In this document: positions 19,401 to 53,965 of the stretch, in pieces
Layout of the letters: each line of letters opens with the position of its first letter
Position numbering within the stretch: position 1 is the stretch's first letter
Origin: Vairimorpha necatrix
Lineage: Eukaryota
Direction: 5' to 3'
Length of the DNA: 64,000 nucleotides
Assembly (NCBI GenBank): GCA_036630325.1
Contig: CP142728.1
Coordinates: forward strand, 992,001-1,056,000
The notes under the pieces: generated by a model
The model's database searches: none
What the model was told of the DNA's origin: nothing
What the model saw: the letters and a program-made list of their open reading frames with translations, nothing else
Program-made: the position numbers and the translations under genes

Positions 19401-20535
19401 CAGAATCTAAGATTAACTTAGCATCTTTTCCGTTGATTTTACCAGAAAGTATTATGGTACTTATCTTTGTCATAGGTTCGGTAATTATTTTCGTCTCTTC
19501 AAGATTTCTTGATCCTTTATTGGCTGGTCGACTATTTGGATGTTGATTATAAAAGCATTCTTTGGTCTGGTGTGAGTTATTCTTATGAATGGAACACCAT
19601 TTTCGAGTGTTGTAGTTATTTCTTGTATTGGTAGCATCAAAATGTTTTTTGGGTTCATCATTATCAACAATATTATTTGTAATCTTATTTTCGTAACGTT
19701 CAATTTCTTTGTTTATTACTTTGTCAAGGTTTTTTAAATATTCTAAAGCTTCCTGTAAATTATCTTGTATTCTTGCCTTTACTATCTCGAAGTTACTATT
19801 TCTTCCTAGTCCGCTGAAAAAACATTCACTCATATGTCTATTAAATTCCGTCTTGCTTATTTCGTAGTAAGCGCTGTATATGACAATTCTCTCATAAATA
19901 GCGTCGTAATACTCGGTTATCGTTCGGTAGCTGATTTGCAAAATTCGAAATGCCTCGCTCAAAATGTCACAGTTACTAGCTCCATATTTGATCTTAATTA
20001 TATTCCTTCTAATGGTTACGCAATCTTTTGCAAAAATCTCATTATCTAATCGTGAATCTGGGATTAAATTCGTTAAAATTAAAACTTGTTGTTCATTTGT
20101 CCAGCATTCTGGATCGCTATTGATTCAAATTCTATGAACCAGGTTGTAATGTTCCAGTTATCTATGTTTCTAATTATTCTTATTTTCTTGTTAAATTCCG
20201 TTTCTGTTTCTGGAATTCTAATCTTTACTTGTAAAAAGTCATCCTCATTATCAGATTTCTTCTCCTTATAAATGTTTTTATTCTTCTCAATTTGAATTCA
20301 AATTGAGATGTCCTATGGGGACATGGCCATTTTTCAGATATGCCTCTATGAGGCTTTTGTTATGTTTAATATTTTTAATGTTTTTATTACTATTATATTT
20401 ATTATTTTGATTACGGTTGTTTCCTAAATTCATCATGCCCTCCTTTTCTTAAAATTTTATTTATAATTTTTTTTTAAAAACTTGGAGGGAAAATAAAATA
20501 AATAAAATAAAATTATGTTATGAAAGGACATAACA
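16408..20535 (-). mobile_element. Ty3/Gypsy LTR retrotransposon B (palindrome-PBS group), 232-bp LTRs
   Basis: Near-identical LTRs 16408-16639 and 20304-20535; ATATC target-site duplication on both sides; polypurine tract AGAGGAGGCAGGA. Confidence 0.95.
16651..19962 (-). CDS. Gag(C-terminal)-PR-RT-RNase H-IN polyprotein of element B (gag N-terminus upstream is frameshifted)
   Basis: CSIHKNNSHQTKEC knuckle, LDSGA protease, YIDD RT, CDASD RNase H, HHCC zinc finger and DDE integrase. Confidence 0.92.
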   Translation of the reverse strand: MSEAFRILQISYRTITEYYDAIYERIVIYSAYYEISKTEFNRHMSECFFSGLGRNSNFEIVKARIQDNLQEALEYLKNLDKVINKEIERYENKITNNIVDNDEPKKHFDATNTRNNYNTRKWCSIHKNNSHQTKECFYNQHPNSRPANKGSRNLEETKIITEPMTKISTIILSGKINGKDAKLILDSGATKNFIGSKLATGLGLDIKEDATVDVKFANNQTETSCNSTLVKLEVNDLMECRLVKLQVLQEGPDEVILGTEFLHGNGFILNYKLGLVEYKNRNISFHDKSKECELDNLLFEKLNLATEKELKLNKTMDLYKLNNDKFKCIKTNTLQKIVYDKSLKYYEAHPYKVPLAYVGRLKEELARLESEEIIERCNSKFASPAFVIEKKNKDLRLVIDYRHVNKYILDEIYQIPNIHDNLLLLSGNLYFSQLDLTNGFNQAPIDVESRVITGFYILGKHYQYKRIPFGIKSGPKLFQRIISELLEEIDNVFVYIDDIVIYGKSKDAHDETLLQVLKTLYNHNLRINFDKSKFCKTEIEILGCIVNNRGIRANLKNLDEKILLKEPKTKKELQRLLGIINWFRTFVPNLSTKINQVTNLLKKTDTQKIKWSSSHTMEINNIVEIIKKNINLVSPDFNKKFILQCDASDTGMGSVLIQAHGLIGCYSKKFLSSEVNYSIVEKELFAIVKSMDHFRRIIQGNYVRIETDSKNCTFENKKISNRLERWKVLLNEFNFEIFSIDGMKNNIADHLSRCYIISQGKADKQKYDEKVRSYCTYANNSMGVKDLLKDNKQRIIISENKAKEFIKFIHEISEHCGEVIMYLNIKKHYWVHNIKRNITEVCHECRKCLINKERNKKKYSNVKIYSEIIFETISTDIYGPFSLEEFEGTYYSTKGFILTITDVFSRYTKIFFNEKIRSQEVIECLEVWQEHFTKPKKVVSDNGTQYTSHLVKNYLQKQGIKQQLIPAYHPQSNGVSERINRTISEMLRMNKKKNMKSIVKSIEHRINNNVNTTIGCSPREVVFKRSFYDLESKEMEYSQPSRTEVHDTDIVTCGQEVYRKNPSTNKLEPKYCGPYKVSEVGINGRWVKLIGYNDWIHLSQLKF

Positions 20536-20975
20536 ATATCACATTTGGTCGGGAAAATATGTTCTCTGTTTTTTGGTCGCATTTTTGGGACCGTAAAACA
20601 GAGAAAAGCAAAAATTTACATTTTTTTTAAAAAAAGACTCATAAAACAACAGAAAATAAAATTTCATAGTTTGATACTGTCACACGACAACCTTCTTGGG
20701 GCTCTAGAAATCAGTACAAACATCTAAACTAAAACCACTCGGCCGTCAAATCTCAATAAGAGCCGTGTCAATGACGTAAACTAAATACGTCATCGTTGCC
20801 AAGCAAACGACTTAGAAAGTGTATGTTTTTATCTATAATGCCATAATATGAAAAGTTACTTAAGATAATACTTTTCCCTTCTATTCTTGACAACTTTGAC
20901 ATTAATTAAAATTTAAACAAAAAAGACCGAATTTCTGCCATTTGCCTTGTTATGAGAGAGCAACAAACCAATAAA

Positions 20976-21764
20976 GGGTGTTTTTAGCCCAGTGGTAGAA
21001 GACGATGCTTCTATTGAGCAATGGCTGGGTTCGATTCCCAGGGACACCAAAATTGTTTCTTTTTTCTATGATGCAGTTGGAACAACTCAGATGATGAAAA
21101 TGTTTACGATAATCATTAAGTTGATTCAGTAGAACTTGTGTGTACCCAGCCACAAGGGGATTAGCATCTAGTGTAGAAACGCACCTCAAGGCCATAAACA
21201 GTATCACCCTTGTGATGGCTGTATGATACATAAATGTATCTAATGGTAAAGGCCTGGTCGGAGTCCATGGCTGGTGCACTCTAGATTGGGATACTTGAGC
21301 TACTAAGAGATTAGACGAAGTAGGGCAATAAAAGGTCTCGTGGACCCTATCCTAAAGAATCTGTAACACGGTGGCCGAAACTAGTGGGAGACTGGTGGTC
21401 AGCGCAGCCCAATAAAAACACCGGGCTGGTGATGTGGTCGTATAAGGAGTTGTGTGTGTGCAATACATATGATTAAAGGGACCTTTGAGTCAGTACAATG
21501 ATGTCTCTCCTCGGATTATAGATAACCATGCTTTTTAAGTATATCCGCTGTGAGGTCACTCTGGACGCGATTTGAGGTATAAATGGAAAGTGTTCTCCCG
21601 GAGCCAAAGTCCAATGGATACGGCGGAGCTTGCTGCTCCGGCAAGTTGTATGGAGGGAGTTTTAGTGAGTAAGAATCTCACAGTACCAGTTGGATGAGGA
21701 TCACACCCGAATCCCTCTGGTCCCTATGTAAGGTTTCTCCCTTTCTCTTACTTGCAAGAAAAAA
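20976..21764 (+). mobile_element. tRNA-derived SINE, copy 2 (~790 bp)
   Basis: tRNA-like head 20977-21049 (GGTGTTT...TAGCCCAGTGGTAGA...GGTTCGATTCCCAG..GACACCA); A-tail; duplication aacaaac(c/t)aataaa at 20962-20975 and 21765-21778. Confidence 0.88.
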
Positions 21765-24608
21765 AACAAACTAATAAACAGTTTCGTAAAAACTCATTTT
21801 AAGACACACCGAGCAGTCAGGGAGGCTGCCCGTGTCACAGATACATCCTTCGTTTTATAGACTTGGCCTATGTAAAGACTATATGAAAAAAACTAAAATT
21901 ATTGCCCTTATTAGACGTTGTGGTTCTTGTGATTATGTCGTAGCAAAGTTAGAATATCTTCGGAAAAAGAAAAGGAAAGATTTGTTTATAGATGTATAAA
22001 ACGAGAACGTAAGGCAAAAAAATAGTTTTTTACCCAGCAGTCAATATCATTCTTAATTATCTTTTTTGTTGTGTTTTTAATCCTTTGTAACAGCAATTAT
22101 AGATTGTTTAAAGGTTAACGAGTGTGTTAAATGACAATATTTTAATATATAGCTAAAATTAAGAATATAAATTAAAAAGAAATTTTAAAAAGACTGCAAG
22201 TCGGGGAAAGAGGTGCAAGGGCGGAGAGTGAACTGTATTGTTGTGATGACTTGATTCAACAAAACAAAGGTCTTTACATTATTTGTTTACTACGCTTAAC
22301 AAATACTCCATTTTTATGTATTTTGATCTTTACTGCGTTTTAGGATAGTCTTTTTAGAACTTTTTGTTGTATGTTTGTTTACAAACAAACATGTAAAACT
22401 ATAAATAGCGAAACCCCCCCTTAAGATAAATTAGTAGGAAGACTGATACAAAATCTAAAAACAATGAAAACTATACTTTTAAAAATACCCTTAATCATAT
22501 TAGGACGTATCTCCGCTTAAGATATGTCAATTGTGAAGAAGAGGAACTATTAGAGTTCCATCTAGAACTGACAATGTAGCAAAAGATACTGTATGGATTT
22601 AGGGTTGTTTGAGGCAGTTAATAAAAATTTATTTCTATGTCGTCATGTTCCTGATCGAAAATTAATATTCTAACAAGGAATATAGGAGATAGAGTTTTAC
22701 TAGAATCAGTTCTTATTTCCAATGCCCATACTAGTTATTTAAGTGTAGCAGCAAATATAAATCTTGAATACATTAATGTTATTTATTGAATAGGTGTGGT
22801 ATCCACCACAATTATTTCTTAAATTTTTCTTCCTTTTCAATTTTTAGAAAATATTTTCTATAAATAAAAAATATTCAAAGAAGGGCATACAAAATGAAAA
22901 GAACAACCAAAGAGACAGACGACCTACGTACATGACTCCACAGCGAGATTATGATAATAAACCTTTAATTAAAAACAAACCATTTATTTGTTCATTCATA
23001 GAACAACAACTTCGTTTCGGACACCTCATCCAAGGTTACGACAATTTGATATCAAATAAGAAAAAAGATCCCACGAACGAAACTACAAAGAATAAGAAAT
23101 ACGTAAAATTTTAGTCCCAATCCTTGGGAAAACGACTAAATATACTGTCGATATATTACAGGTAGATGATCTAGAGACTGTTGATATTTACCACTGGTTC
23201 AAAGAATTTGAATCCCTTATGAAACAGCAATCTTGGACAGAAGAAAATCTTCAGCTAATTTTAAACAATCTATTCCGAGATCCAGACGTGGATCGAGATA
23301 TATTTTCTGAAGAGCTACGAAAGCATGAAAGAGGAATTAATTAAATTGAAGTATCCAAGGAGTTCCTACTCCTTGATCGCCAAGAAACTAGACAGAATCT
23401 ACCAAAATAACTACAAAACTATTAAAAATATTTGCAAGAGATAGAAACTTGCCTGAAGATTTATACCACCTTAATAAAAACCACCAAAACTGAGTACGCT
23501 AGAGAATTACACGACCCCCTTTTAAATAACCTAGGACGGTTTACAAAACTCCACGGTTAATCCCTGGAGAAGGATGAAGATTTTGATACCCTTTATAATT
23601 ACCTATTAAATACAAAAAGAAATTAATTAACAACTTACTAGAACAAGAGCAAAGCAATCTAAACATCTGTAATCTTCAATTAGAAAATCAAAAAAAATAT
23701 TTCGCTACAAAAAGCTGGAATGAAAACGGGGAAACTAACAAGCCAGTAAAGTTTAACGCGTCAAATTCTAGCATATTACCTAAGGAGAAGCAAAACTATG
23801 TTGGTCATAGTGCCGAAAATAAGACATTTAGAAAAACTGAACGACATAATACGATGATATTGAACCCACAGAACCAATAACAGATATTTTTATAAAAGTA
23901 AAATTGATCAACAATGAAGAAATTACCGCATTAATAGACACGGCGTCCACTAGAAACATTGTTAGTGCAAATCTAGTAGAAAGACTTAAACTTGATAAAC
24001 GCGAAAATCAGTAAATAAAGGTATTATTCGGGAACAGCCAAGTATTTACCTTAAATGAAACAGCAGATATGAAATTTATGACCAAGGAATGCGCGGAACC
24101 CTTCATTAGTGAATTTTACCTCATGGATAATCCAGCACATCATTTAATACTAGGAAATGTATTTTTAAGCAACAATGGATGCATAATCGACTATGAGAAT
24201 TATGAAATGAGATTGAAAAAAATAAAAATACCGTTGATTCACGAAAGTCAACCACAAGAGGAAGTGTCAGATACAGACAAAATTTTCTTCGAAAAATTCG
24301 CTTGTCATCGAGAATTTGATACAGAACATGAATTTACTGACAAATTACGTAAAGAGTTGACGTATCCTAGGCGAAGATACGTCTCGATGAGGTTTGAGGT
24401 GTTTTCAAAACTATTATTTTTATTGTTAATTGAGTTTGCTTTGACCTTCTTACTCACCATGCCCATTTGGGCTTTTTTTTATTTATAGTTTTACATGTTT
24501 GTTTGTAAACAAACAAACAACAAGAAGTTTTAGAAAGACCATTCTTGAAAAATAGCATAGTGCATCATTACATGGACATGGAGTATTTGTTAAGAATAGT
24601 AAACAAAC

Positions 24609-27600
24609 TGTCAAACTGTTTATTATAATTTTCCATCCCCTCTTTTGGAAATGTTTTTAAATAGTTTTAGTAGCCAATCAAATACTAACATTTGTCGAAA
24701 GATGATTGGCTAGTTTTTGATGGGCTACGACACCCCCTCACTCAGTTTTTGATGTATCCCTTTTTATGTGGCTTTTATTAACTCTAAATTCGCCTTTGTT
24801 GTCAAATGGCCTCACCATGTACGCGTCTTCCGATAGTATTTCTGATATTTTGTATCCAGGGAGCCATTTTGAGCTTAATTTATCTTTCCCAGGTAGATTC
24901 CTATAGATCATCACGAGTTCACCAACTTCAAGTTTTTCTTTAATGTCAATTTTCCCTTTGATTATATCTTTTTTGTACTTAATGAAGTTTTTATTTCTTT
25001 TCTCAAGCAAGTGTTGCTTGGAATATCTTTTAGGAATAATTTCAAGTTTCTTATCTACTTCCGTTTGCATCTGATGTCCATGTTTCATAATATACGGGGA
25101 GGTTCCAATGGCTCGATTAAAAGAGAGGTTGATAGCTAATGTTGCCTTTTTTAAGAAGGGGCTCCAATCTCGTTCTCCGAACAACGACATTCTTCTTAGC
25201 GCATTTCTAAGAGTTTGGTTTACTCTTTCTACTGCACCTGTTGTCTGATGGTGGTATGGGGAGCCAAATTCCCAATTTATATTATATTTTTTCTGTAACG
25301 AAGATACTTCTTGGTTGCTAAATTCCAATCCGTTATCCGTCAAAATCCTTTCTGGTATTCCGTGTTTTCTTATAATTAGCTCTTCCACAGCGCGATAAAT
25401 TTCTTTAGAACTTTTGTTATTTAGTATCTTAGTCTCTATCCATTTTGTGTAATGATCAATGGCCACAAAAACATATTTCGATCCCGTACTTTCGTACATT
25501 TTACCTAGTAAATCAATTTCCCAGAGTTCGTTGGGTCTTTCTGATATGATTACCTTATTTTTTGTTTTAGTTCTTGGTCCCCTTGACATAAGACATATTG
25601 CGCATTGTGAACAAAATTTTTCTATATCTCTATGCATGTTTTTCCACGCGTAATTTTGGGAAATCATGAATTTCATGGTGTTTGTAGAACCATGGCCCGA
25701 AATATTATGGTATTCTATAAGAATTTGCTTTCTGTCCTCTACACTTAGTTCTTGTGTATTTACTTTATTTATTTCTTTTTGTTGAAAGAATCTACTGAAT
25801 CCGTCTGCTATATTATCGTCTCCCTTTACGTGTTCTATTTTGAAATCGTATTCGGCAAGTTTCAATGACCATCTTAAAAGTCGGCTAGATGGGTCTTTTG
25901 TTTGCATGAGATAGATAAGAGCTTTGTGGTCAGTTCTAAGGATAAATTTTTTCCCTAATAGGTAATGGCGAAAGTGGCCTATTCCTTTTATTAGGCCCAA
26001 TAATTCCTTGTCAGTTACTGAATAGTTTTTTGGCATTTATCAAGTCTTTTGCTGTATGCCGCGATCATTTTTTCTTCGCCTTTTTCGTTCTCTTGCAATA
26101 AAACAGCTCCTATTCCTGAATCCGAAGCATCCGTCATAAGTATGAAATGCTTCTGAAAATCGGGCTGCGTCCTGATTGTGCTTTTTCCCATTTCTAATTT
26201 CGTTTTATTAAATGAATCTGTTTGTTCTTCGGTTAAGTGGATCTTTTTATTGGAACTTAGTTTTTCTCCTTTTAATATATCATATAGTGGTCCTGTAAGG
26301 GATGCTATGTTTTTAATAAAGTCTCTACAGTAATTAACAGTACCTAGGAAGCTTCTTAGTTCCTTTATAGTGGTAGGTATTGGGTAGGTATTTATTTGAC
26401 TAATTCTTTCAGGATCAACTTTTATATATCCGTTTCCTATGATGTTTCCTAAAATTTTAATTTCATTTTTATAGAACTTACATTTTTTTAAATTGAGTGA
26501 TAACCCAGCGGCTCTAATTTTTCCTAACGCTATTTGTGAGTGTTTATCGTGGTCGTCCTTGGTTTTAGAATAAATAATGATATCATCTAAATAGGGTATT
26601 ATAAATTTTCTGTTTTCACATCTAAAAATATTGTCCATCGCTCGCTGAAATGTGGCCTGAGCGTTGCAAAGTCCAAACGGCATCCTATTGTATTCATATA
26701 AACGACCCCTAAATGAAAAGGCTGTTTTTTCTTTGTCCTTTTCTTCCATGGGGAGTTGTTGAAATCCACTTGTGGCGTCTAAGATTTTAAAAAATGAAGC
26801 TTTACAACAACTATCTAAAATTTCGTCAATTCTAGGGGACATGTATGAGTCCTTGACTGTTATAGAATTTAATCCCCTATAATCTATGCACATTCTCCAA
26901 GTTTTATCGGGTTTCGGAACCATGACTATCCTACTACACCAGGGGCTTTTACTATCTCTGATTATTCCCAGCTTGAGTAATTTCTGAATTTCCTTTTCAA
27001 TTATGTCCTCTTGTGCAACCGGTATCCTACCATTTCTTTGGCAAATTGTTTTTTTTGCAATTAACTTCTATGCTATGTTTACCAGCTGTACATAGATTAA
27101 ATTCTCCTATTTCTGTCTTGAATAAGTCTTTAAATTCTTCCTCTATTTTTGATTTCGTTAGATCGTTACAGTAATTAACCTTTTGTTTAGCATTTGGAGA
27201 TATTTCTGTAAATATCTCGGTGACTAATTTCAAATTTCTTTTTATAACCTCGGATCCTAGGATTATATACCGCGTATCTTGCATTATCAATGGAGAGAAT
27301 GTAATAGTTTTATTTTTTATTGTTATGGTGCAATTTTTTAGTTGTCCAACTATTTTTAACGTGTTATTTCCCGCTCCTTTGACGATCCCCGAATATGTGT
27401 TGATATGTTTATGTAGATGTTTCGGGATGTCTGGATAACCAATGAGTGACACATCAGCACCAGTATCTAATAAAACGCTCTTCTTTTTATTAAATATATA
27501 ACCCTCTATGAAAAAAGGATTGTCGTCGTTGATAACTCTGCATAATGAATAAAAAATATCATCATTTATTTTTTTGTCTAGTTCCGCTTCTTCTTCTACT

Positions 27601-28512
27601 ATATTAAGGTTGCTAGGATGTTTTCTTCTTTCGTCCTCAATGAATTTCGTCAATTTATTGCATTCTTTAGTAGCATGGGATCCTTCTCCATGTACAATAC
27701 AATACTTTTTGTTTTTATAGGAGTTTCCTGCCTGTCTCCCTCCGTTAGACGGTCCCTTGCCGTATTTTCTGTTGTTATATGGCCCCTTGCCATAGTTTTC
27801 TTTAAAAGTTGGCCCTTTGCCATAACTATACGCGTTTAATTTATTATTTCCGTAATCTTCCACCCTTGACAACATTTTATCTGGATAAGCTATCCAAGAT
27901 ATTTCTTCTGCCATTTGAATGAAGTTTTCCCATGTTTCGGCGGATTTTGAAGCTTGGAATAACAGTGGCTAAATCACAGATGGGGATTTATTGATGATCA
28001 TTTTACACAATGCAATTAGGTATATTAAATTTCTTCCCGAGATGATAGTCGCTTGTGTTAGCATTTTGGAAAAATCTTCCCTTGTTTCTGGTATGGGGAG
28101 AGAGAGAGGAATCTGCTTAGATTAATATCATCGTCCTTGCTTGCACCAAATCTGACTTTTAACATTTTTACCAAGTCTTCGAGAGGTATAGAGTTTATCT
28201 TTCCTACTAAAATTTGGGATGCCCAAGATAATGCATTCCCTTTCATTTTGAAAATTAACGCTTTTTTTATTTCTTGCTCTGTCCATTCAGAGACTTCCCC
28301 CAACAACATGATATCTCTTATCCAAGTGCTAACGTCTTCACTTGGCCCCCCCCCGAAAAATAATTGGCATTTTTTGTAGTTGTCGCCATGTCAAACTGTT
28401 TATTATAATTTTCCATCCCCTCTTTTGGAAATGTTTTTAAATAGTTTTAGTAGCCAATCAAATACTAACATTTGTCGAAAGATGATTGGCTAGTTTTTGA
28501 TGGGCTACGACA
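24609..28512 (-). mobile_element. Ty3/Gypsy element E, identical 124-bp LTRs, inserted in the 3' LTR of D
   Basis: LTRs 24609-24732 and 28389-28512; CAAAC duplication; PBS TGGCGACAAC; frameshifted ORFs for gag-PR (27027-27914, LDTGA), RT (26015-26923, YLDD) and RNase H-IN (24738-26036). Confidence 0.95.
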
Positions 28513-29991
28513 CAAACAATGTGATGAGCTATGTTTTGTTTGATCAGGTCATCACATCCTGCCCACTCCTCCGGATTTGATATCATCCTCGTGAATTTCG
28601 CTTTCAAATCCTTCCAACTTATACCATTTTCCCTTTCTTCCTACTTTAGTCACTGCTACGGGTCCTATGTATTGATCGTCTAATTTTTTCGCTTTAAAAT
28701 TTCTTACAAAGACTTGTTGTCCTACCTCAAATGCTGTGGCCTTGGTAGTGCTGGTTTTTAACTCAGTAGCGTTTCTACAGTTAGTGTCAAATTTAGAAAT
28801 TTCCTCCTCGTAAGGATCACATGGATTGTGATTTATCGTTAAAGTAGCTGGCGGTATTTTTAGTGTGGTATTATAATTAAAATTGTGTCTTAGATGGATT
28901 GCTTCTGTTATTGATTTGATGTTTCTACCTTTGTATAATCTAAGGCATTGCGTAATAGTTTGGTTTAGTCGCTAGCATAATTCCATTGCTACTTGGATGG
29001 TATATCGGAGTTGCTATCTTGTGAATCTCTTGTTCTTTACAAAATTTTACTAGTCTCTCAGATTCATATTGTGATCCATTATCGCAAATAAAGGTCTTCG
29101 GCCTTTCATAGATACCTATCCAGTCTTTTAGACATGCAATTATGCGCTCAGCTGTAGACTTGTACGCAAAATATACTTTTAAAGTTCTCGTATATACGTC
29201 TACAATGGTAATATAGTATCATCTTTGACATATACCATTATGCATGTAGTTCTCTAGACTAAATGGTCCATAAACATAACTCGATACTTTTTCGAATGGT
29301 GAAGAGGCTACAATATTTTTATGTGATTTGGTATTTCTGGTTTTCTTTTTAGTTTTAATGCAATCGATACAATTTCCGGTCATTTCTTTAATCAATTTCT
29401 TAATACCTAAAACTTTGAATATGGGCTTAATATTGTGATGAAGAATAGTAGAGCCTACGTGTATGGATTTTCAATGCATAAATTGCAGAAAGTTTCTCGT
29501 CTGGTCGTTTTCGATAATTATTCTGTTTTTTGTGTCTTTAGCCCATTTATTGGGATCATCTTTAGTTTTCATCACGAACTGATTAAGCTCGTTTACATAT
29601 TTCGTGCTATCTATGTCATCTTCGCCGTCCTCTTGACATCTCGTGCTAAGGATTTTAATGTTGATTTTTATTGTCTGATTTTTGTAATTTATTATTACAT
29701 TATTTCCACTAAAAAATTCGTTACCTAATACGAATTCGACGGGGCAATTTTTTAGCAAATAGAGTTTTACAATATGGCTTGTTTTCTTGGTTCCAAGAAG
29801 TATTTCTTCGGTCACAGTTTGTGTACACTCTTCCTTCTTATCATTCCCGTATTTTATAGTTATAGGGGAATCTTCTACGATCGACAGTTTTAATTTTACA
29901 GCAACGTCACTTTTTATAAAATTTCTGGTGGCTCCCGTGTCTATTAAAAACGATGTTTTGAAATTTTTAATTGTCCCTGGTAATTCTGGTG

Positions 29992-32900
29992 TGTTGACGT
30001 TAGCCAAAATATGAGGTTTTAGAGTATTCTTTTTATTATTGCCCATCCTCATAAATTCGAGGATGTATTTATATTTAATTCTGAAACGTTGTTTCAGAAT
30101 TATCATGTTTCAGATGTCAAGAAGACAATCTGATTGGTCCGGACTATCCGCCGTCCACACTCTCCCCTTCATCAAATAAGATATCGTCTTTTCAGTTTCG
30201 GTTACAGCAACTAAATCTTTTCGATTAATATCAAATGTTTTCCCTCCATTACAACTTCTTATTTGATAAGCACCTTTGCCTTTCTTAGTGATAATTTCGA
30301 ACTCTTCATCTTCGTATGGTGATTCGAATTTTCTCTTCAATAGTGCGTGTTTCTTTAAAAGAACTGTATCTCCTATGTCTAAGTCATTGGGGTCTGCTTT
30401 ATATAAGTTTCGTTCGTTAGACTTAGCCTTTTTCTTATCTTCTACTTCCATTATTCTTTCTTTAATAATATTTATTTTCTCTCTTTTCTGTCTTACATAT
30501 TCAATTGGATCAACAAAATATAAATCAAAGTCTGATGGTATCTCAATTAAATTGCTTGGAACTAAAGGCTCTCTGCCGTATAGTTACATAAAGGGTGACG
30601 CATTAAAGCGTTCCACTATACCAATCCTATATTGCATTAACACATACGGGAATACTCTATCCCAGTTCTGTTCATGATCTACCATGGCTTTTGATATTTT
30701 TTCTATCATGGTCTTGTTTGTTCTCTCTGCAAGACCATTAGCTTGTGGGTGGTATGGAGATGAATGTTTAAATCTACTTCCCCATAACGATGCTACTGAG
30801 TTCACTAGTTTATTTGTGAACTCTAATCCCTGATCACTCCTGATCGTTTTGACCGTCCCATGTCTTGAGAATACGTCTTCCACTAGAAATCTTGCTATCT
30901 CTTCTGCCGATTTCTCTTTTAGAACTTTACCCTCAACCCATTTAGTAAAGTAGTCGGTTGCGAGAACAATGAATTTGTGTCCTGATTTCGACTTTGGCAG
31001 TGGACCGATGCAGTCGATCCCAATTTCCATGAATGTTCCTTCTACATTTGTTGGATATTGTTTGAACGGTCTATTCCTTTTAAATTTTAAACATGTTCCA
31101 CATGTTCTCAATATATCTTTCACTCTATCTCGAGATATTCCTGATCCCGCATGATGTATCTTCAAAAAATTGTACGTGTTATTGGCACAACTTTGTCCTT
31201 TTAAGGAATGAGCTTCTAAGATTAATTTCGTAGACGCCCCATCGCCATCTTCCTTGGTTATTGATTTTAATTGGACTCTTGAAAGGCAGTCTGCTACTAC
31301 ATTATCTTTCCCTTTCTTATATTCAATCACAAATTCCATGTCTGCCAGGAACATCAACCATCTAGCAATCCTTCCTTGTGGATTCTTTACTTTATAAAGC
31401 CATACAAGAGATTTGTGATCTGTTCTTATGACAAATTTTTTATGTAAATAGTTTTTAAAAGTCTTCACCGCATAAATTATTGCAAGAGTTTCCTTTTCAA
31501 GTGTAGGATAGTTCCTCTCAGCAGGCATTAGATTTCTGCTACAGAATCTGATGACCACATCCTTCTGATTCTTTTTCTGTTTGAGAACACCGCCTATACA
31601 ATAATCTGATGCATCTGCTTCTATTATGAACATCTCTTCCATATTTGGGAGTTCTAAAAACGCCGAATTTATTAATTCTAGTCGTAGGTCATTTACAGTT
31701 TTCTCGACTTCAATTTTTGAAAATTCTCTTTTCCTATTGATTATTTCGTTTAATATAAATGTTTTACTAGAAAAATTCTTAACATAGTTTCTGAAGTAGC
31801 CTATTCCGCCAACAAATGAGTGTAACTGTTTAATAGTTTCTATCTTTAGCTTATCTTTAAAAGGACCTAGTCTCTTTTCATCTGGGAATACCTTTCCATC
31901 CATTACTGAATGACCTAATAAATCCACCCTCTTCGTGCAGAAAACGCTTTTCTCAGTACTTATTTTAAGTCCGTTTGCTAACAAGACTTGAAGGACCTCT
32001 CTTACATCTCTGTGGTGTTCTTCATGCGTTTTACTATATATGGTAATGTCGTCCATATAAACTACGACTTTGGAATTTATTAAATTTCTGAAAACTCCAT
32101 ACATTAGTCTCTGGAATGTTGCCGGGGCATTAGTTAAGCCGAAAGGCATCATTCTATATTGAAACTTACCTACTGGTGACATAAAGGCTGTCAACTCTTG
32201 TGACTCTGGATCCATGGGCACTTGATGATACCCCTTTTCTAGATCTAATTGTGTGAAATATCTGGCTCCACTCAATGAATTAAGACACTCCTCAATAGTT
32301 GGAGGCTGGCAAACTTCTTTTACCGTTCGATTATTTAATTCTCGATAATCTATACACATCCTGTGTCCTCCCGTGCGTTTTTTAACCACTACTATAGGTG
32401 CATTCCACCTACTCACGCTTTCTGTTATGATTCCATTTTTAGCCAACTCTAGGCATTCGTTAATTATGAACTCCTTCTTTTTACCGTTCATAGTATAACT
32501 TCTCATATTAGCTATTGTCACGTTGGGGCGTAAATCAATTTTATGGGCTATTCCCAACGTATTGCTGAGACCTTCTTCACGTCCTTTCAGCCTTTCAAAG
32601 TAGTCTTTGACTAATTCCAACGTTGTGTTACATGTGCTGTGAACACTTGGCTGTCGTGATGTCTCTTTAGATATATGTCTTAACTCCAGACAATCCATAT
32701 TTTTTTTTATATTTCCGGTTTTTAATATATTTTTCCCAAGAGTAATTCTTTTGTTATGGAAATCAATCGCTCCTTTGTTTATTTCCAAGAAATCTCTTCC
32801 TAATATTACATCTTCGCTTAATGGACACATCACCTGGAGGGGGATTTTGTACCTCTTTCCTTCAATCTCCAGGACTCCATTAATGCTACCATAACTAGAA

Positions 32901-34014
32901 ACTATACCAGTGGCAGTTGTTATGCGTTCTCTTCTCATGTTTTCTAACTTACATTCTTGTATGAGACTTTTATCTATAAACGAATGCGATGCTCCTGTAT
33001 CTAGTAAGGCATTAACAGTTTTATTATAAATTTTGACTTTTAAATAAACTAAATCAGTTTTATTTTCATTGACTTCGTTGAGTTTTTTAGTGTCTTTAGA
33101 AATAATTTGAGCCCTTCTAGAACTTGAATAAGCCGCTTTTTCTTTCTTCAGATTTTGGTTTTTGCTCGGACATCTACTCGCATAATGTTGCCCTCCGCAG
33201 TTAAAACATGAAATTTCTGCTTTAGTATCTTTTCTCTGTTTTGTTATTAAAGATGAGTTTTTAGACTTTATTTCTGGTGTAATTTTATTATATTTACCTA
33301 ATCTTTTAATAAAATCTTCGTTATCATTTAAGATTTTGATGATGCTCTTCCAGTCCATCGACTCTTTTACTTTGTCGTGAAGAACAGTTGGGAAAAACTC
33401 GATCAGTTCCATTTTGACTGTATTAAACTCTAATTTAGCTTTCCTATTCTGGGTTATAACCTCCATTATGAAATCTTCCAGGCCACTTTCGTTAGGACCA
33501 GATATTAATATTCTGTATAACTCTTTGATTTCATTTCTTGTCGTTTGTTTATTTACACCAAATTTAGTTATAAGAGCTTGTTTAAAACTGATGAAGTCAG
33601 TATATTCGATGTCTTCCATCGCTATCATCCATTTTTTCGCTCTTCCCACGACATAGGGTTTCATATAGGATAGAAGTTTTTCGCCTTTCCATTCCCCTTC
33701 TAAATACGAGAATTGTTCCAGCCATAGCTCAACTTCCATGCCTCCTTTACCACTGAATGGTCTTATGCCATCCTTCCTGAAGCCCACTGCTTCTAGTAAA
33801 GTACTTAATCTGTCCTTCTCAACAGATTGGTTTGCGTTGTCGCCAGTGTTGACGTTGGCCGAAATATGAGGTTTTAGAGTATTCTTTTTATTATTGCCCA
33901 TCCTCATAAATTCGAGGATGTATTTATATTTAATTCTGAAACGTTGTTTCAGAATTATCATGTTTCAGATGTCAAGAAGACAATCTGATTGGTCCGGACT
34001 ATCCGCCGTCCACA
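29992..34014 (-). mobile_element. Ty3/Gypsy element G, 168-bp LTRs, nested in D
   Basis: LTRs 29992-30159 and 33847-34014; ctggtg on both flanks (5-6 bp duplication); PBS TGGCGACAAC; polypurine tract GAAGGGGAGAG. Confidence 0.95.
30584..33961 (-). CDS. Gag-PR-RT-RNase H-IN polyprotein of element G (integrase C-terminus continues in another frame to ~30160)
   Basis: CFNCGGQHYASRC knuckle, LLDTGA, YMDD, EADAS, DDE integrase. Confidence 0.92.
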   Translation of the reverse strand: MIILKQRFRIKYKYILEFMRMGNNKKNTLKPHISANVNTGDNANQSVEKDRLSTLLEAVGFRKDGIRPFSGKGGMEVELWLEQFSYLEGEWKGEKLLSYMKPYVVGRAKKWMIAMEDIEYTDFISFKQALITKFGVNKQTTRNEIKELYRILISGPNESGLEDFIMEVITQNRKAKLEFNTVKMELIEFFPTVLHDKVKESMDWKSIIKILNDNEDFIKRLGKYNKITPEIKSKNSSLITKQRKDTKAEISCFNCGGQHYASRCPSKNQNLKKEKAAYSSSRRAQIISKDTKKLNEVNENKTDLVYLKVKIYNKTVNALLDTGASHSFIDKSLIQECKLENMRRERITTATGIVSSYGSINGVLEIEGKRYKIPLQVMCPLSEDVILGRDFLEINKGAIDFHNKRITLGKNILKTGNIKKNMDCLELRHISKETSRQPSVHSTCNTTLELVKDYFERLKGREEGLSNTLGIAHKIDLRPNVTIANMRSYTMNGKKKEFIINECLELAKNGIITESVSRWNAPIVVVKKRTGGHRMCIDYRELNNRTVKEVCQPPTIEECLNSLSGARYFTQLDLEKGYHQVPMDPESQELTAFMSPVGKFQYRMMPFGLTNAPATFQRLMYGVFRNLINSKVVVYMDDITIYSKTHEEHHRDVREVLQVLLANGLKISTEKSVFCTKRVDLLGHSVMDGKVFPDEKRLGPFKDKLKIETIKQLHSFVGGIGYFRNYVKNFSSKTFILNEIINRKREFSKIEVEKTVNDLRLELINSAFLELPNMEEMFIIEADASDYCIGGVLKQKKNQKDVVIRFCSRNLMPAERNYPTLEKETLAIIYAVKTFKNYLHKKFVIRTDHKSLVWLYKVKNPQGRIARWLMFLADMEFVIEYKKGKDNVVADCLSRVQLKSITKEDGDGASTKLILEAHSLKGQSCANNTYNFLKIHHAGSGISRDRVKDILRTCGTCLKFKRNRPFKQYPTNVEGTFMEIGIDCIGPLPKSKSGHKFIVLATDYFTKWVEGKVLKEKSAEEIARFLVEDVFSRHGTVKTIRSDQGLEFTNKLVNSVASLWGSRFKHSSPYHPQANGLAERTNKTMIEKISKAMVDHEQNWDRVFPYVLMQYRIGIVERFNASPFM

Positions 34015-37000
34015 CTGGTGTTTTTGTGTTCAGCCCCTTTTCACCTATAATAAAGTTTTTAGTCTCACCTTTACGTTTTTCTTCATGTCTTTTACTTTTT
34101 TCTTTTAAAAATTTCTGATAGGTCTCGCATTCTTTCGAGTCATGATCGTTATTCTTATGATATCTACACAACTTATTGTTTTCTATCACTTCAGACTTTT
34201 CTTTTATAGACTCTTTTTTTATAAAGTTGCCATTTTTAGTTTCTAGCATTATTTGTTTAGAGATTATTTTTTTTTTCAAGTGTGTACAGGTAACTTATAG
34301 CATCATTATAGTCTTTGAAATCGTGCTTGAAAAGCTCACCATCTGTATAAGGACCAAGCCCACTGTAAAATGTTTCTTCAACTCTTCTATTAAATTCGGG
34401 TTTAGTGAGTTTATGCGTTACGGCATATATATTTGCAAGCTCTTTAATTTCTTTAATATATTCTTCGATGGTTTCATAGTCTGTTTGTTTAATTGAAGCT
34501 AATTTAGAAAGTATGCTTCTACTATGTTCTATCGGAAATCTAAGACCGATCAGATAATCTCGTGTATTAAAAAAAGTCTTCCACTATCTTCTCTTTTTCG
34601 ATCAATGAGTCTTTGCTCATTTTCCTTGTCACCATCATTAGTTGTTTCAGTGTCCATATATTATCTTCAGATACATTCTCAATATCTTTTAACCATTCTA
34701 TGATATTCATATTTAGTATATCTTCAATGATGTAAAGGTACGTCGTGAACTTCTGTTCTAAGCCTTCTATTTGGTTTCGAATGTAATGAACTTTCCCTTG
34801 AAACTTTCTGTCTGTTTCCTTTCGTATTTCGACAGATGTACCTTGCTTAGGATTTCTCTGGTTGAATTCAACTTGACGTATCCTAGGCGAAGATACGTCT
34901 CGATGAGGTTAGAGGTGTTTTCAAAACTATTATTTTTTTTGTTAATTGAGTTTGCTTTGACCTTCTTACTCACCATGCCCTTTTGGGCTTTTTTTCTATT
35001 TATAGTTTTACATGTTTGTTTGTAAACAAACAAACAACAAGAAGTCTTAGAAAACCATTCTTGAAAAATAGCATAGTGCATCATTACATGGACATGGAGT
35101 ATTTGTTAAGAATAGTAAACAAACAATGTGATGAGCTATGTTTTGTTTGATCAGGGCATCACAGGAGTATACTGAAAAACTAAATACAAGTCAACCTATA
35201 TACATGAAACCAATAAATCTAAATATAACGGAACAGGACATAGTTACCCAATATAAGAACTATCTGGTACCAGAAAAATTTAAAATACCGGCTCAAGAAG
35301 AGATAACACGGTTAATACACGAAGGCATTATAGTGAAAACTGATAGCCACATTACGTCACCAGGATTTTTGATTTGTAAGAAAAATGGGCAAGTACGACT
35401 TGTCATAGACTACCGTTACTTAAATAATTATTTAATTGATGAACCTTGCAGTATCCCAAACATTTTAGAAAACATAAAAGGTATTGAAGAAAAGAAGATA
35501 TTTACGCAATTAGATTTAAAAAATAGTTTTAACCAGATACCGCTGCCAAAGAGTCGCGACCCCTAACTACATTTATACTCTTCAATCAACGCTATCAATA
35601 TGTAGGGATACCATTTGGGTTATAAATAGGACCGAAACTTTTCCAACGAGTAATTTTGAGTGTTCTCGGAGACCTACCTAATGTTTTCGTTTACATTGAT
35701 GATATAGTAATTTTTGCCAATACAATACACGAACACGACAAAATATTAGAAGAAGTTATTACACGATTAGAAAACAATAATATACAAATTAATCTAGGCA
35801 AATTTCATTTTTACCAGAAAAAGATAACCCTTTTAGGATATCTCATATCTTCACGAGGCATAGAACCAGACTTAAAATATTTAAAACATAAGATATTCAC
35901 TAAAGAAATAGAAACTAAAGAGATCTACAATGCCCAATAGAACTTTTAAATTGGTATAGACCATTTGTTGATGATTTAAGTACACGTATCAATAAAATAA
36001 CAGATTTATTAAAATCAAAGGAAATAAAAATAAACGAGGACCATAACAAATGCATACAAAAGATATGCAACGAAATTAAGGAAGGAAGTGCCTTGAAGTT
36101 CCCCGACTTTTCAAGAGTTTTTAAATTGAAATGCGACGCTTTTAACATAGGTATTAGAGGAACTTTACCAAGATCATGGAACATTAGGTTATTATAGTAA
36201 AAAATTGAATAGCACAGAAAAAAACTACTCCATTGTCGAAAAGGAATTATATGCAACAACAAAATGCGTGTTATTCTTTAGAAATATAGTACAAGGTTAT
36301 CATACCATAATCTATTCGGATAATAAAAATTGTATTACAATAAACACGGCAGCGACATCCAGAATGAAAAGATGGCATTTGTTATTACAAGACTTCAATG
36401 TTGAACTAGTCAAAATAGAAGGGAGCAAAAATAACGTAGCTGATACATCATCAAGATTAACAATGATAAATCAAATAAAACTGACGAAAGAAGGAAAGTT
36501 TGCAAAAAGAGTAAAAGAATTTTTAACAGGAGAAAGAGACGAGGAAAACAGGAGAATTATTAAACAGGAAAAGGACCTCCGCTTTATAAAGTTGATTCAT
36601 AAGTTTAGTGGACACGTAGGGGTTACGAAGACGTACGAAAACATTTATCGATATTACAAAATTGAAAATATAAAACATAAAGTTGTAGAAGTAATTCGAG
36701 AGTGCAGGAAGTGTAAACACTATAAGATAAAACAAGAAAAGAAAAGGCCAGCGTTAAAATAGGAGCCTCTAATATTTTTGAAAAGATCTATACAGATACA
36801 TACGGAACATTCAGTTTAGAAGGAATATCACACGATGAAGTTACCGAAAAAGTATATTACATGACTATAACGGACATATTCACAAGGTTATCAAGAGTTT
36901 ACTTTACATATAATGCCAATAGCGAAAGTGTGTTATCATGTTTAAAGAAATGGATTAAGAAACATAAGAAACCTAAATCACTTATATCAGATAATGGCAC

Positions 37001-39110
37001 CGAGTTTAAGACAAAGAAGTCGAACAATACTTAACAGAAAACGACATCATTTACATACTTATTCCCCTTATGCGCCTTATGCAAATGGAATAAGTGAGGC
37101 GATTAATAAGACAATCACGGAAGTGATAAAAATGAATAAAGGAAAAGAGATTAAATCAATAACAAGAAAGATAAACTTTAGACTTAATGAGAATACGAAT
37201 AGTACAATCAAGCTGTCACCTAAATCAATATTAAGAGGATATAATTTCTATTTAAACCTAACCCAGATTACTTATAAGCCCCATACTGCGTCTTCAGAAG
37301 TCAAGAAAAAATATCAGATAGGACAAGAAGTTTACATTAAGAATCAAAATACTAAGCTTACAGATAAGGAATACATCGGACCGCACTACATAACAGAGGT
37401 AGGCAAAAAGTAGCGATAGATAAAGGTACAAGGAATTGAAGATTAAGTTCACGTAAGAAACGTCAAACCATGAGAGAGGCAGGATGTGGTATCCACCACA
37501 ATTATTTCTTAAATTTTTCTTCCTTTTCAATTTTTAGAAAATATTTTCTATAAATAAAAAATATTCAAAGAAGGGCATACAAAATGAAAAGAAAAAACCA
37601 AAGAGACAGACGACCTACGTACATGACTCCACAGCGAGATTATGATAATAAACCTTTAATTAAAAACAAACCATTTATTTGTTCATTCATAGAACAACAA
37701 CTTCGTTTCGGACACCTCATCCGAGGTTACGACACTAGGAAATACAAATGAAGAAGATTAAACGCAAATAACAATAAAAATTTTTGATTCGGTACGAAAT
37801 CAAAAATGATTAAACAGCACGGAGTAAAACATAGTAATATTGATTCATATCTCAAAAATTTACTTTTAGAATTAATTAGAATAATTATTCAAAAAGATCC
37901 AGCAAATGGATGTTTTTTTAGTTTTATTATTTTCATATTTTTGCAGCCCCATTTTCTTTTTAACCTTAAAATAGTCAATAACTCGATGACCCTATAAGAC
38001 ATCGTCAATTTAAAGCAGCGTTGTAATGTAATCATTTTTTTCTAATGTTGATTATGCTAGTATGTTCTTTTTTATATTTTTTCATATTACAGTGGGGTTT
38101 CCCGTGGGTTCATAATTTTTTATATCTCTTTTGGGTTCATGTTAAAATTTAAGAAATTTCATATTCCGTAGCGTTGGGGTTTAAAAAAAAGCCAATATAA
38201 TCGACGTATGTGAATATATTTTGCAATGCCCGTGTCACGTCATAACGACATATCACATAAAATAAATCTGTTAAACATCTTATCATTGACCGTGAAACGT
38301 CGATAAATAAACAAAAAATATTTTTAGAGATATATTTATAATGTACGATACAAACAATTAGTATTCTTGTTAAACAAATAAACATTAAAAATAAAAGAAA
38401 GGCATGTAATCTAATCTAGAGCAAGACCAATAAAGCTTTCAGTAAGTGAAGCAATAAAAATATGTTTTAAGAGCATATTTACTTTTACTAACATAAATTA
38501 ATATACAATTATACATGATGTAATATTTGTATTATACATCACAAACTCACCATGGAAAAGGTTTAGAATATTTTTATTATGTGTAAATCGACGTCAAATT
38601 GTCATCTATCATCATATAGATGTCAAGTTACTTATTTTTATGTTAACCCAGCAAATAAACAAAACGTATGTGCAATAGACAATATAATTTTATTTCTGAG
38701 AAATAGAAAATAGATCATTTAATTGTCAGAATAATCATAGTTTAAGATAAATATATAAGTTGTGTTCATGTATAATACTGTAAAATCATACAGTCTCAGT
38801 TACTCATAAAAACAATTTAAAATCCCTTTTTATTCAATTTTTACACAATTATAAATGTTGCTAATCTCAGATCACACTTTTGATCAGTGAATCAGTGATT
38901 AATCAATCATTTGCTGATTTATTAAAATAATTTTTTACCCTTGTAAAATTTTATTTCATCCAATCTGATATTATATCATTTATTAAGTATTTTTAAACAA
39001 TTATAGTTTTCATATTTTATATTATAAGAATTTGTATTAAGAAATATATATATTTCTAATATTTTCATAAATACTGATTAAAATCAAATATATTGATTTT
39101 TAATACACAA

Positions 39111-43435: not shown

Positions 43436-43508
43436 AGTCTTACCAACACCCTATGAAGGGTAAAGCGCAACAAACCAGGAGCAAGCTCAGTAGAGAAAAT
43501 TTTGACGT

Positions 43509-48867: not shown

Positions 48868-48955
48868 TATAGCTTAATTAAAAAAAATGAAGATCTAGAA
48901 TTAGAAGAAAGAAGTGTTATATTATTAACAAAAAGACTTATATTTATTTATATTT

Positions 48956-49268
48956 GACCTGGGAGAGGTCGGGCATGATACTGATGCTGTATTGTTCCGC
49001 TGAACTGAGTCGTGTTCTTAAATGGTGTATTGAGCCAGGCGTTTTCGTTTTTCATCAGACCCATGAAAGTGGGTCTCTAGTCATATTATGACTAAGGATG
49101 TATCCTATGGGAACAAACTTTTCTCCTACAAGCGAGGCCGTTAAGGTATGCTGGCGTGTAAACGCAATTATTGATGATTTTCTGGTTGGTGGAGTTTTTG
49201 GTGGCTTGGTGGCTTTTCTTCGTTTTGCTGATTCTGTCTTTTTACAATAAACATTTTTATTTTATTTT
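48956..49268 (+). repeat. Structured repeat module R, copy 2
   Basis: Direct repeat of R, 88 nt after the ORF2 stop. Confidence 0.92.
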
Positions 49269-51532: not shown

Positions 51533-51535
51533 TTT

Positions 51536-51863
51536 GACCTGGGAGAGGTCGGGCATGATACTGATGCTGTATTGTTCCGCTGAACTGAGTCGTGTTCTTA
51601 AATGGTGTATTGAGCCAGGCGTTTTTGTTTTTCATCAGACCCATGAAAGTGGGTCTCTAGTCATATTATGACTAAGGATGTATCCTATGGGAACAAACTT
51701 TACTCCTACAAGCGAGGCTGTTAAGGTATGCTGGCTGTAAGCGCACTTATTGATGATTTTTTCTTTATTAGTGGAGTTTTTGGTGGCTTGGAGGCTTTTC
51801 TTCGTTTTGCTGATTCTGTCTTTTTTACAATAAACAATTTTATTTTAATTTTATTTTTTTTTT
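51536..51863 (+). repeat. Structured repeat module R, copy 3
   Basis: Near-identical to copy 2. Confidence 0.92.
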
Positions 51864-53965
51864 AAATATTTTATCCTTAGAAGGGTACGATAATGAGGAC
51901 AAGAGAAACAACAAATAATCTAAATCCAATAAACAATAATATTTTAGACACGTTTCTCAGTGGTGGATACCACAAGTTAAATTTAACGAAGATGTATCCT
52001 AAGCTAAACAAAGGGATAAAGACTGAAAAAGACAAAGAAATGATCAGCTTTAAAATTAAAGTCAAAGGCCTAAAAGAGCCAATTATTAAGCAATTAGAAA
52101 TAGTAAAAAGTATGGAAAAAACCAACATGTTAGAGTGGTTTAGAAAATTTGACGAGCTTAGCAGTAAACTAGAATGGAACGAGGAAGAGAGCCTTTTAGT
52201 ATTGCAGAATGTAGTTCAAGTCAAGGAGTGCGAAGGAAGAAACGGGGACCAAACTTACGCGAAACTTAGAGACGGGATACTGAATAAAGCGTACCCACAT
52301 CATCTATTCTCAAATGTAAGCATTAGATTACTGGAAATTAAACAATACAAGTATGATTTGATAGAAGAAATGTTCGTGGAGATTCATGCCAAACTAGAAG
52401 TGGCTTCGTATTTAGAAAAGTACACCAAGAATGAATATGAAAGAAGATTTAACGAAGTTTGCTTAAATGCACTATCAGAGTCCACAAAAGATTATGTCAT
52501 GAAATCAGGAGTTAAAAATGTTAAGGAAATCATTAACTTACTAATAAATCTCGAGAAAGAACTAGTAGTTAGAATAAAGAATGATTTGGATCTAGCCAGG
52601 TGTAATCAAAACGAACCCAGAGAACCCATGCAGAGAAAAGAAATGAACCGATGGTGTAGTGTGCATAAATCTAAAACGCATAACACCAGAGATTGCTTCA
52701 GTAAGAACACTAGGAGTCAAAATAATACCCCTAGTGCCGATACAGAAGAATCTAAATTAAACAAAGATATTAAGTTTTCGCATTGTAAGGTAATTTTAAA
52801 AGAAAAATCGGAGTATTTAATAGTACAACTCCCCATTTCTATCAATGACCAGATGGTAATCGCTATATTAGATACAGGATGCACTAAAAGCCTAATAAGT
52901 GCAAAAAGGTGAATCAATTAGGAATTATTACAAGAAAAGATAGAGAAATATGCTTCATATTCGGAAACGGCCATCAAAAGAAGTCGGCAGATATAATAGA
53001 AGAGAAAATTAAAGTGAACATGTTAGATCTTGAACACCCAACAAGACTACATGTAATAAAAGAACTATCAGCAGATATAATTTTAGGAGTGGAATTTTTA
53101 TGCGAGAATCAAATACTTCTCAATTTTGCTACACAAACAATATATTGTAATCAAAAGATTATCAACATGGTAAATGGACTACCTCAACCGTACGAGGAGA
53201 ATAGAGATTTACTACTTCAGAAATGCTTTTGGATAAACAAAGAGACTGTCAGTTCCGGAAACACTTCCAGATTAATGAAATACATGGAAAATAATGATTT
53301 ATATAAAGAAATGAAGATTAATAAAATTTCATTCGAAATCAACAACAAAGAGGATTTGAGAATAACTAATAAAAAATACTCAATCCCGCACAAGTATCTG
53401 GATGCAACGAAACGAGAGATACAGAGACTCTTGAATGAGAAAATAATCCAATACAGTGAATGTAAGTACAGCAGCCCAGCTTTTGTCATTGCCAGGAAGA
53501 ACCACGAAATAAGATTAGTGGTAGATTATAGGGAACTTAACAGACATATAGTTGATGAAATAGACCTATTGCCGAAAATAGAAGATATGATCAATGAGGT
53601 CAAAGGGGCGAAGTATTTTTCTAAAATCGATCTAAAAAACGGGTTTAACCAAGTACCTATATAAGAGAACTCAATGAATGTGACAAGCTTTAGAATTCTA
53701 GGGAACGCATACAGATATACAAGAATCCCATTCGGCATTGAATCGGGTCCAAAATTATTCCAAAGGACTAAAATAAAATACTGGCTGAAATACCCCAAGT
53801 AGTAGTATATATAGATGACATCTTAATATACACATCAACCAAGGAGGAACATAATAAGATCCTAAACCAAGTACTAGATAGGCTGTCTAGTTACGAAATA
53901 AAAATTAACTTTGAAAAGAGTATATTTGGCGTTAAAGAAGTCGAAATGTTGGGACTTATAATAAA

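Follow-up and report, generated by a model that had tools for sequence, protein, structure and literature searches.

To our knowledge, almost all long terminal repeat (LTR) retroelements and retroviruses need a host tRNA to start reverse transcription, and Tf1-type self-priming is the one established exception. In Tf1, the primer-binding site (PBS) is not palindromic and pairs with the 5' end of the transcript; the primer is taken from the element's own RNA, with RNase H cutting the 11-bp duplex. The closest precedent for the locus described here is provided by the fungal GalEa Copia elements, which carry a palindromic 'Conserved Hairpin Site' (CHS) where the LTR ends; its variants differ by paired changes, and a tRNA site is lacking (PMC5445492, published in 2017). 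A palindrome in the PBS slot is thus already known as a kind. The authors of that work proposed the CHS in the role of a PBS, offered no fitting mechanism and stated that it is not Tf1-like, in a text that also discusses Tf1-type priming (PMC5445492); the CHS is cited in PMC6934838 as well, where the self-priming elements of the sushi group are listed. Palindromes in the PBS have been described for mouse mammary tumour virus (MMTV) and proposed for human immunodeficiency virus 2 (HIV-2), those of MMTV being dispensable for dimerisation (PMC8096270). For the microsporidia, Parisot et al. (2014, PMC4202319) described specific Ty3/gypsy groups that encode a single polyprotein and have diversified within Microsporidia. 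We analysed a stretch of 64,000 nucleotides (nt) of Vairimorpha necatrix (assembly GCA_036630325.1, contig CP142728.1, positions 992,001 to 1,056,000; hereafter the window), which contains four Ty3/gypsy elements (B, C, D and F) whose PBS slot is taken up by a perfect palindrome of 12 nt. The best explanation, to which we assign a probability of roughly 0.5 as a whole, is that this 12-mer replaces the tRNA site, that selection acts on its pairing with a copy of itself and that the primer is the element's own RNA.

Anatomy of the junctions

All four complete 5' junctions of the lineage share one layout: the LTR ends in CA, a single A follows, and the palindrome begins. Both this layout and the coordinates of the four 12-mers had been given by a first-pass annotation of the window, and both were recovered as described; it had not mentioned that B and D lie on the minus strand. 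The features of the four elements are as follows.

20291..20302, minus strand: 12-nt palindrome of B, TTTGAATTCAAA, in the PBS slot; part of a perfect 24-nt palindrome at 20285-20308
20304..20535, minus strand: 5' LTR of B, 232 nt, TGTTATGTCC...GGACATCTCA, containing TATAAATA, GGGCATG and AATAAA; flank duplication GATAT
16408..16639, minus strand: 3' LTR of B, preceded by the polypurine tract GAGGAGGCAGGA
16651..19962, minus strand: gag-pol open reading frame (ORF) of B, encoding protease, reverse transcriptase (RT), RNase H and integrase; 100% identity to a Vairimorpha necatrix protein
22795..23043, plus strand: 5' LTR of C, TGTGGTATCC...GGTTACGACA
23045..23056, plus strand: 12-nt palindrome of C, TTTGATATCAAA, 1 nt past the LTR; 14-nt version at 23044-23057
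37485..37734, plus strand: 3' LTR of C, preceded by GAGAGAGGCAGGA; C encloses D, K and M
34874..35163, minus strand: 5' LTR of D, about 290 nt, TGTGATGCCC...GGATACGTCA; D is nested in C
34861..34872, minus strand: 12-nt palindrome of D, GTTGAATTCAAC, 1 nt past the LTR
24358..28556, minus strand: 3' LTR of D, in pieces (28513-28556 and 24358-24608) split by K; preceded by GGAGGAGTGGGCAGGA
51861..51974, plus strand: remnant of the 5' LTR of F, ...GGATACCACA; full 3' copy at about 58698-58886
51976..51987, plus strand: 12-nt palindrome of F, GTTAAATTTAAC, 1 nt past the LTR
51893..52912, plus strand: gag ORF of F, 339 aa, ...GGYHKLNLTKMYPK..., starting within the LTR and reading across U5 and the palindrome

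LTR boundaries were set by self-comparison and inspection of both LTR copies, guided by the 3' copy and by the target-site duplications; the two LTRs of B are identical at 231 of 232 positions. Alignment of the LTRs of B, C, D and F gives, in element orientation, the junction consensus GGAyAynnCA, then A, then the palindrome, the spacer A of B being the complement of position 20303. Target-site duplications are GATAT for B, ATAGG/CTAGG for C and ACTCC/ACTCT for D, and the hallmarks of Ty3/gypsy LTRs (direct LTRs of the TG...CA type, a short target-site duplication, a polypurine tract before the 3' LTR) are present. The LTRs had been called otherwise dissimilar in the first-pass annotation, a description that does not wholly hold: the four share termini, a TATAAATA...GGGCAT motif and the polypurine tract GGCAGGA|TGT, and the elements form one clade.

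It should be noted that a lone 12-nt palindrome is uninformative, because the window contains 38 perfect palindromes of at least 12 nt against approx. 30 expected (an estimate from base composition at 33% GC); it is the position that carries the signal. A motif scan found no further junctions of the GGAyAynnCA, A and palindrome kind in the window beyond these four.

Elements of other lineages within the window can be used as controls. Six elements with a TGG-type site had been listed previously; we found four (A, K, M and E), each with a classical TGGCGA... site:

24609..28512, minus strand: element K, 124-nt LTRs; classical PBS TGGCGACAACTAC directly past ...GACA
29993..34014, minus strand: element M, nested in D; ORF 30584-33961; PBS TGGCGACAACGC 1 nt past the LTR
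53966..57031, minus strand: element E, nested in F; 38-nt LTRs; PBS TGGCGAACACAAGG; target-site duplication TTTAT
Element A: classical PBS TGGCGAGAACGAC

The arrangement of CA, A and a perfect 12-mer occurs at 4/4 junctions of the clade versus 0/4 of the other-lineage elements. Conversely, no TGG occurs in the first 60 nt past the 5' LTR of B, C, D or F, in keeping with the earlier claim that the expected TGG is missing; a TGG-start site within 0-3 nt of the LTR end, by which tRNA-primed elements are classically recognised, is thus absent from all four.

The insertions are nested four deep: D lies within C (22795-37734), M within the interior of D and K within the 3' LTR of D. Element E sits inside F (51861-58886) and interrupts it. 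The LTR of E (TGTAGGG...GGTTAACA) measures only 38 nt, and its gag-pol ORF is intact (1003 aa), with an ATG inside the LTR and a reading frame that passes through the TGG-type PBS. A D-like solo LTR is found at 22242-22530, with the target-site duplication ATTGT.

Covariation and coding constraint

The compensatory changes previously proposed at positions 1/12, 4/9 and 6/7 were confirmed. Across the four aligned junctions, 24/24 cells are paired and three of the six pairs have changed on both sides (1/12 between U-A and G-C, 4/9 between G-C and A-U, 6/7 between A-U and U-A), with zero one-sided changes. Only 7/500 shuffles match the observed covariation, and slid registers are 21-65% paired with zero double changes. 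The central pair 6/7, which would be unable to pair within a hairpin, is kept in C via a change from AT to TA.

The site lies in coding sequence. In the LTRs of B, C, D and F, TATAAATA is followed about 20 nt on by (A/G)GGGCAT(G) and, 35-60 nt further, by AATAAA (e.g., 20410-20465, minus strand). The gag ATG stands at or just past GGGCAT(G), and therefore translation starts in R and runs through the poly(A) signal and U5. In D and F the ORF is continuous from the LTR ATG across U5 and the palindrome into gag, and the encoded motif (...LIExYLxxG...xLNSx) is also present at the N-terminus of relatives. Given the peptide and the codon usage of the window, the probabilities of a palindrome are 0.016, 0.010, 0.007 and 0.023 (product 2.6e-8), and 3.0% of natural pentapeptides are able to encode a palindrome in this register. 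Gag coding alone is without power to explain the palindrome. The complete pairing, the low probability given the peptide, the compatibility of relatives and the covariation of residues described below all uphold the earlier proposal that self-complementarity rather than sequence is conserved.

The gag N-terminus of B (20127-20420, minus strand) shows a +1 and then a -1 shift relative to the Nosema granulosis homologue, between the palindrome and an 'IAIQN' motif; the first of the two falls where the palindrome lengthens to 24 nt. The NCBI protein model of B (P0001, MNLGNN|QCWTNEQQ) skips the shifted stretch, U5 and the palindrome in the manner of a GT...AG intron. One sequencing run contains 83% of the sampled words from B.

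Distribution among relatives

The ORF of B contains an Asp protease (173-263), RVT_1 (388-545), RNase H (611-733) and an integrase (799-995), i.e., the Ty3/gypsy domain order of protease, RT, RNase H and integrase. The next-closest relatives of its polyprotein are proteins of Nosema granulosis and Dictyocoela muelleri. B, C, F and the interior of D, which is interrupted by element M and is without RT-RNase H, match the group of B relatives at approx. 25-40% identity, a match that is not shared by the ORFs of E, K and M.

A profile search over 1.84 billion representatives yielded 626 matches below 1e-30, of which the best 150 were used. When the N-termini of the stored proteins were aligned to a profile seeded with five sequences, 38 matched and 24 were clean over the five residues; the 24 counted relatives represent one protein per 50%-identity cluster, and the 14 non-clean rows were excluded from the count. 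A palindrome-compatible pentapeptide in the exact register was present in 22/24 relatives versus 0-2/24 in eight shifted registers, and the two misses are, by eye, misalignments in which the true motif is compatible too. The first-pass annotation had held that relatives keeping the peptide while losing palindromy would point to protein constraint; the opposite was seen, as the peptide changes in ways that keep the palindrome possible.

These changes follow the pairing. Where residue 2 is Leu (TTG), residue 5 can begin with A (16/16), and where it is Met (ATG), residue 5 is Leu or Phe, with a T-start (4/4). In one relative (P0137), His and Ala (CAT/GCA) stand, by eye, in place of Asn and Ser (AAT/TCA). 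Residue 1 can begin with A in 21/24 relatives and residue 0 can end in C in 23/24, which fits an LTR ending in ...CA one base before the palindrome across the clade. The palindrome appears to be under purifying selection, strong enough to shape the sequence of the gag protein.

The trait was also mapped on a tree, as had been proposed. The FastTree tree comprises 59 chosen rows (31 selected for carrying the motif, 23 taken from the initial search list) and was calculated with no bootstrap; a branch with support of 100 places 38 rows on one side, namely B, F, all 31 motif-bearing relatives and five relatives without an N-terminus in their predicted proteins, and 21 rows, including the TGG-type elements E, K and M, on the other. 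Named members of the clade come from Nosema granulosis, Dictyocoela muelleri, Hepatospora eriocheir and V. necatrix. B, C, D and F are thus members of a microsporidia-specific Ty3/gypsy clade in which, by our best explanation, the tRNA PBS has been replaced by a 12-nt self-complementary element.

Further scans added no members. With the clade alignment, metagenomes gave 80 loci with at most 34% identity to the query, among which were zero clade members or gag N-terminal motifs; a repeat pair was present in 16 of these loci, none of them useful as a control. The scan of genome contigs gave three unrelated loci, that of viral contigs none, and a second word-search of proteins, made with an alignment of 23 rows, brought up nothing but generic gypsy proteins. 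Three of the unrelated gypsy-like metagenome loci (L052, L059 and L062) have an LTR that starts with TGTGGTGGAA or similar and a GTGGTGGAGA-like sequence right past the 5' LTR; their PBS slot therefore resembles the LTR start.

A possible priming mechanism

The 3' edge of U5 is the start point of minus-strand DNA synthesis. With the U5 boundary at ...CA, the 3' end of a primer would therefore pair at the left edge of the palindrome. Since this edge varies by family and its sole covarying partner is the right half, the simplest primer would be the element's own RNA. That such elements are primed by their own RNA, without a tRNA, is in our judgement the best reading, at about even odds. The computed fold of the bare 12-mer amounts to 0 to -1.1 kcal/mol and that of the self-dimer to -9.4 to -14 kcal/mol. 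A retroviral dimer initiation site would display its palindrome in the loop of a stem-loop apart from the PBS; in local folds, the 12-mer makes up a stem's tip and stands in the PBS slot itself. The lack of a stable 12-mer hairpin, the homodimer and the kept central pair together favour pairing between two RNAs.

More tentatively, we suggest that reverse transcription might start in a dimer-dependent, tRNA-independent manner between two co-packaged genomic RNAs. The palindromes of the two RNAs would pair to form a 12-bp duplex, and the RNase H of the element would cut one strand at the 3' side of this duplex, as the Tf1 RNase H does on its 11-bp duplex. The new 3'-OH would then be extended across the U5-R of the partner. 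Under such a scheme, dimerisation and priming would be one event at one shared site.

Several points weigh against this proposal. We infer the primer, the cut and the dimer from sequence only, and likewise the role of the site as a primer site, the self-derived primer and the pairing in trans. A 12-bp A/U-rich duplex is weak, and because cutting both RNAs would leave the minus strand without a copy of the PBS, an asymmetric cut is needed. All four copies in the window are damaged (B by two frameshifts, C and D by nesting or deletion, F by interruption), and the palindromes across the clade are predicted from peptides, e.g., ATTGAATTCAAT, AATGAATTCATT and TTTGAGCTCAAA. The tRNA comparison covered the one tRNA of the window, and an internal tRNA fragment or another host RNA could conceivably match the site. 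Finally, a marginal complement of 10 nt that includes G-U pairs is present in B, located 119 nt before the LTR end and near the putative transcription start (26/1000 shuffles), the position of the start being a guess from the TATA...GGGCAT motif. Overall, the interpretation of the first-pass annotation, that the palindrome serves tRNA-independent priming, is partly supported.

Alternative explanations

The palindrome might be a signal for dimerisation or packaging only, similar to a dimer initiation site and abutting U5, with part of it paired to a primer that comes from the host, for instance half of a tRNA or a tRNA fragment. We consider this doubtful, although it is the rival that survives best. 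Palindromes in or beside the PBS are known in retroviruses (MMTV, and proposed for HIV-2; PMC8096270), the homodimer is stable, and the comparison with host tRNAs is limited to the only one called in the window, tRNA-Ile(TAT), which shares no more than 4 nt with the 12-mers. However, a fixed host RNA would not predict a left edge that differs between families (position 1: T/G; position 4: G/A) together with the right half, and a contiguous perfect 12-nt palindrome should misfit a cloverleaf arm with its 7-nt loop. Moreover, the PBS palindromes of MMTV are not needed for dimerisation (PMC8096270), and no other candidate PBS was found within 60 nt of the LTRs.

It is improbable that the palindrome acts in cis, i.e., that it forms a hairpin with the flanking U5 and leader in one RNA, which is then cut and extended, as suggested for the GalEa CHS. 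Such folding would suit B and D, in which the palindrome caps a longer stem. Only in these two elements does the dyad symmetry reach past 12 nt: in B as the perfect 24-nt palindrome and in D as a leader that is inversely complementary to the U5 end, imperfectly but in register (12/20, found at approx. 0.3% of random centres), with a U5-leader duplex of -22.9 kcal/mol (0/500 shuffles). The extension is missing in C (4/20) and F (3/20 in register), and a universal U5-leader stem was rejected on this ground. The bare 12-mer is also without a stable hairpin, and a central pair that no hairpin could form is conserved all the same. Nor is there a consistent second complementary copy downstream: within an 80-nt leader, the best 9-mer resembling the second box (CHSeq2) matches 8/9 in B (+70) and F (+63), equalled by 43-45/500 shuffles, and only 6/9 in C and D, so that such a box was rejected as a general feature.

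A dyad-symmetric DNA site for a dimeric protein, be it a host transcription factor or a protein of the element, would account for the perfect symmetry and for the fixed position just past an LTR that bears the promoter. A site of this kind would fix the contacted bases and free the others, without a demand for complementarity, whereas substitutions here are paired at 1/12, 4/9 and 6/7 and, at the peptide level, likewise at 2/11 and 5/8. We therefore regard a protein site as quite unlikely.

Even less probable is cis self-priming of the Tf1/sushi type, in which the site would pair with the first 11 or so nt of its own transcript. The absence of a tRNA site, the U5 hairpin that adjoins the site in folds and the 10-nt complement of B, G-U pairs included, are compatible with this model. 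However, a match to the element's own 5' end, previously named as a result that would speak against a role for the palindrome, is absent from C, D and F, where Watson-Crick pairing of the site with any LTR position runs to 5-6 nt at most, and 859-990 of 1000 shuffles are as good. The Tf1-type complement was rejected as a general feature for this reason, and the model does not require self-complementarity in any case.

Chance, or gag coding constraint alone on the conserved ...KLNS... peptide, is hardly credible and was already disfavoured, for although the 12-mer lies within the conserved gag N-terminal motif LIExYLxxG...LNS, the product of the palindrome probabilities given the peptide is 2.6e-8 and the residues themselves change as pairing predicts (N/K with N/T, S to L, N to I, L to M with K/I/T to L/F).

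Two narrower readings were also dropped. A heat-shock element, suggested by GAATTC, would have the wrong spacing and would misfit C and F. A tRNA half (anticodon arm) would fit B loosely; D and F would need a pyrimidine at position 37, and the covariation would not be predicted.

Other features of the window

A ribosomal RNA (rRNA) unit of the microsporidian type (small subunit at 39111-40357, large subunit at 40472-42994) is directly followed by an element resembling a long interspersed nuclear element (LINE). The latter has an ORF for endonuclease and RT (45142-48867) and end repeats of approx. 320 nt with a partial tandem second copy, which might be taken for LTRs; the repeats at 43116-51852 are part of this LINE-like element, which corrects their earlier assignment. 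The tRNA-Ile(TAT) gene was called by ARAGORN at 20977-21049, beside B, and Rfam gave no report at the gathering threshold. It lies at the edge of a repeat of approx. 700-780 nt with three copies in the window (1331-2111, 8070-8753 and 20984-21766).

Comparison with known systems

With the GalEa CHS, the sites of B, C, D and F share the lack of a tRNA-type PBS, a palindromic box where the 5' LTR ends and variants that differ by paired changes. Nonetheless, the two systems are distinct. GalEa elements are Copia elements of Pezizomycotina, whereas the elements studied here are Ty3/gypsy elements of Microsporidia; they are not members of the GalEa clade, because the integrase follows RNase H and the nearest relatives are microsporidian Ty3/gypsy proteins. 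The GalEa palindrome measures 10 nt and includes the last A of the LTR, compared with 12 nt past a 1-nt spacer here. In the CHS, another box lies 12-41 nt downstream, complementary to the first and forming a hairpin with it, and no consistent counterpart was detected in the four elements. In addition, the sites of B, C, D and F lie inside the gag ORF, unlike the CHS.

Tf1/Tf2 and the sushi elements are likewise Ty3/gypsy elements without a tRNA PBS, with an RNA-RNA duplex of approx. 11-12 nt at the PBS slot and a primer from their own RNA, which for the V. necatrix elements is a prediction. The complement to the transcript 5' end is absent in three of the four elements, and the site pairs with itself; a second RNA is therefore implied, which is not so for Tf1. 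Retroviral PBS palindromes resemble the site in that sequence able to pair with itself overlaps the PBS region, with a possible role in dimerisation or packaging. However, they are still complementary to tRNA, with 6-11 nt of palindromy as a by-product, whereas here palindromy itself is conserved and no complementarity was seen to the one tRNA compared.

B, C, D and F fit the description of the microsporidian groups given by Parisot et al. (PMC4202319). The main text of that paper, supplements not covered, contains zero occurrences of 'PBS' or 'primer binding', and in the literature covered, which left aside supplements and the early Nosema bombycis Nbr papers, no microsporidian element was found described with a palindromic PBS or as lacking a PBS, and no Ty3/gypsy element with the feature seen here. 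Within this context, the same kind of site as in GalEa would have arisen independently in another superfamily and across a whole microsporidian clade, and palindromic primer slots would represent a recurring solution rather than a curiosity. This bears on how such elements could evade host defences based on tRNA fragments. If the proposed scheme is true, RNA dimerisation and priming are a single event, and the same logic may explain the GalEa site, for which a mechanism has been lacking since 2017.

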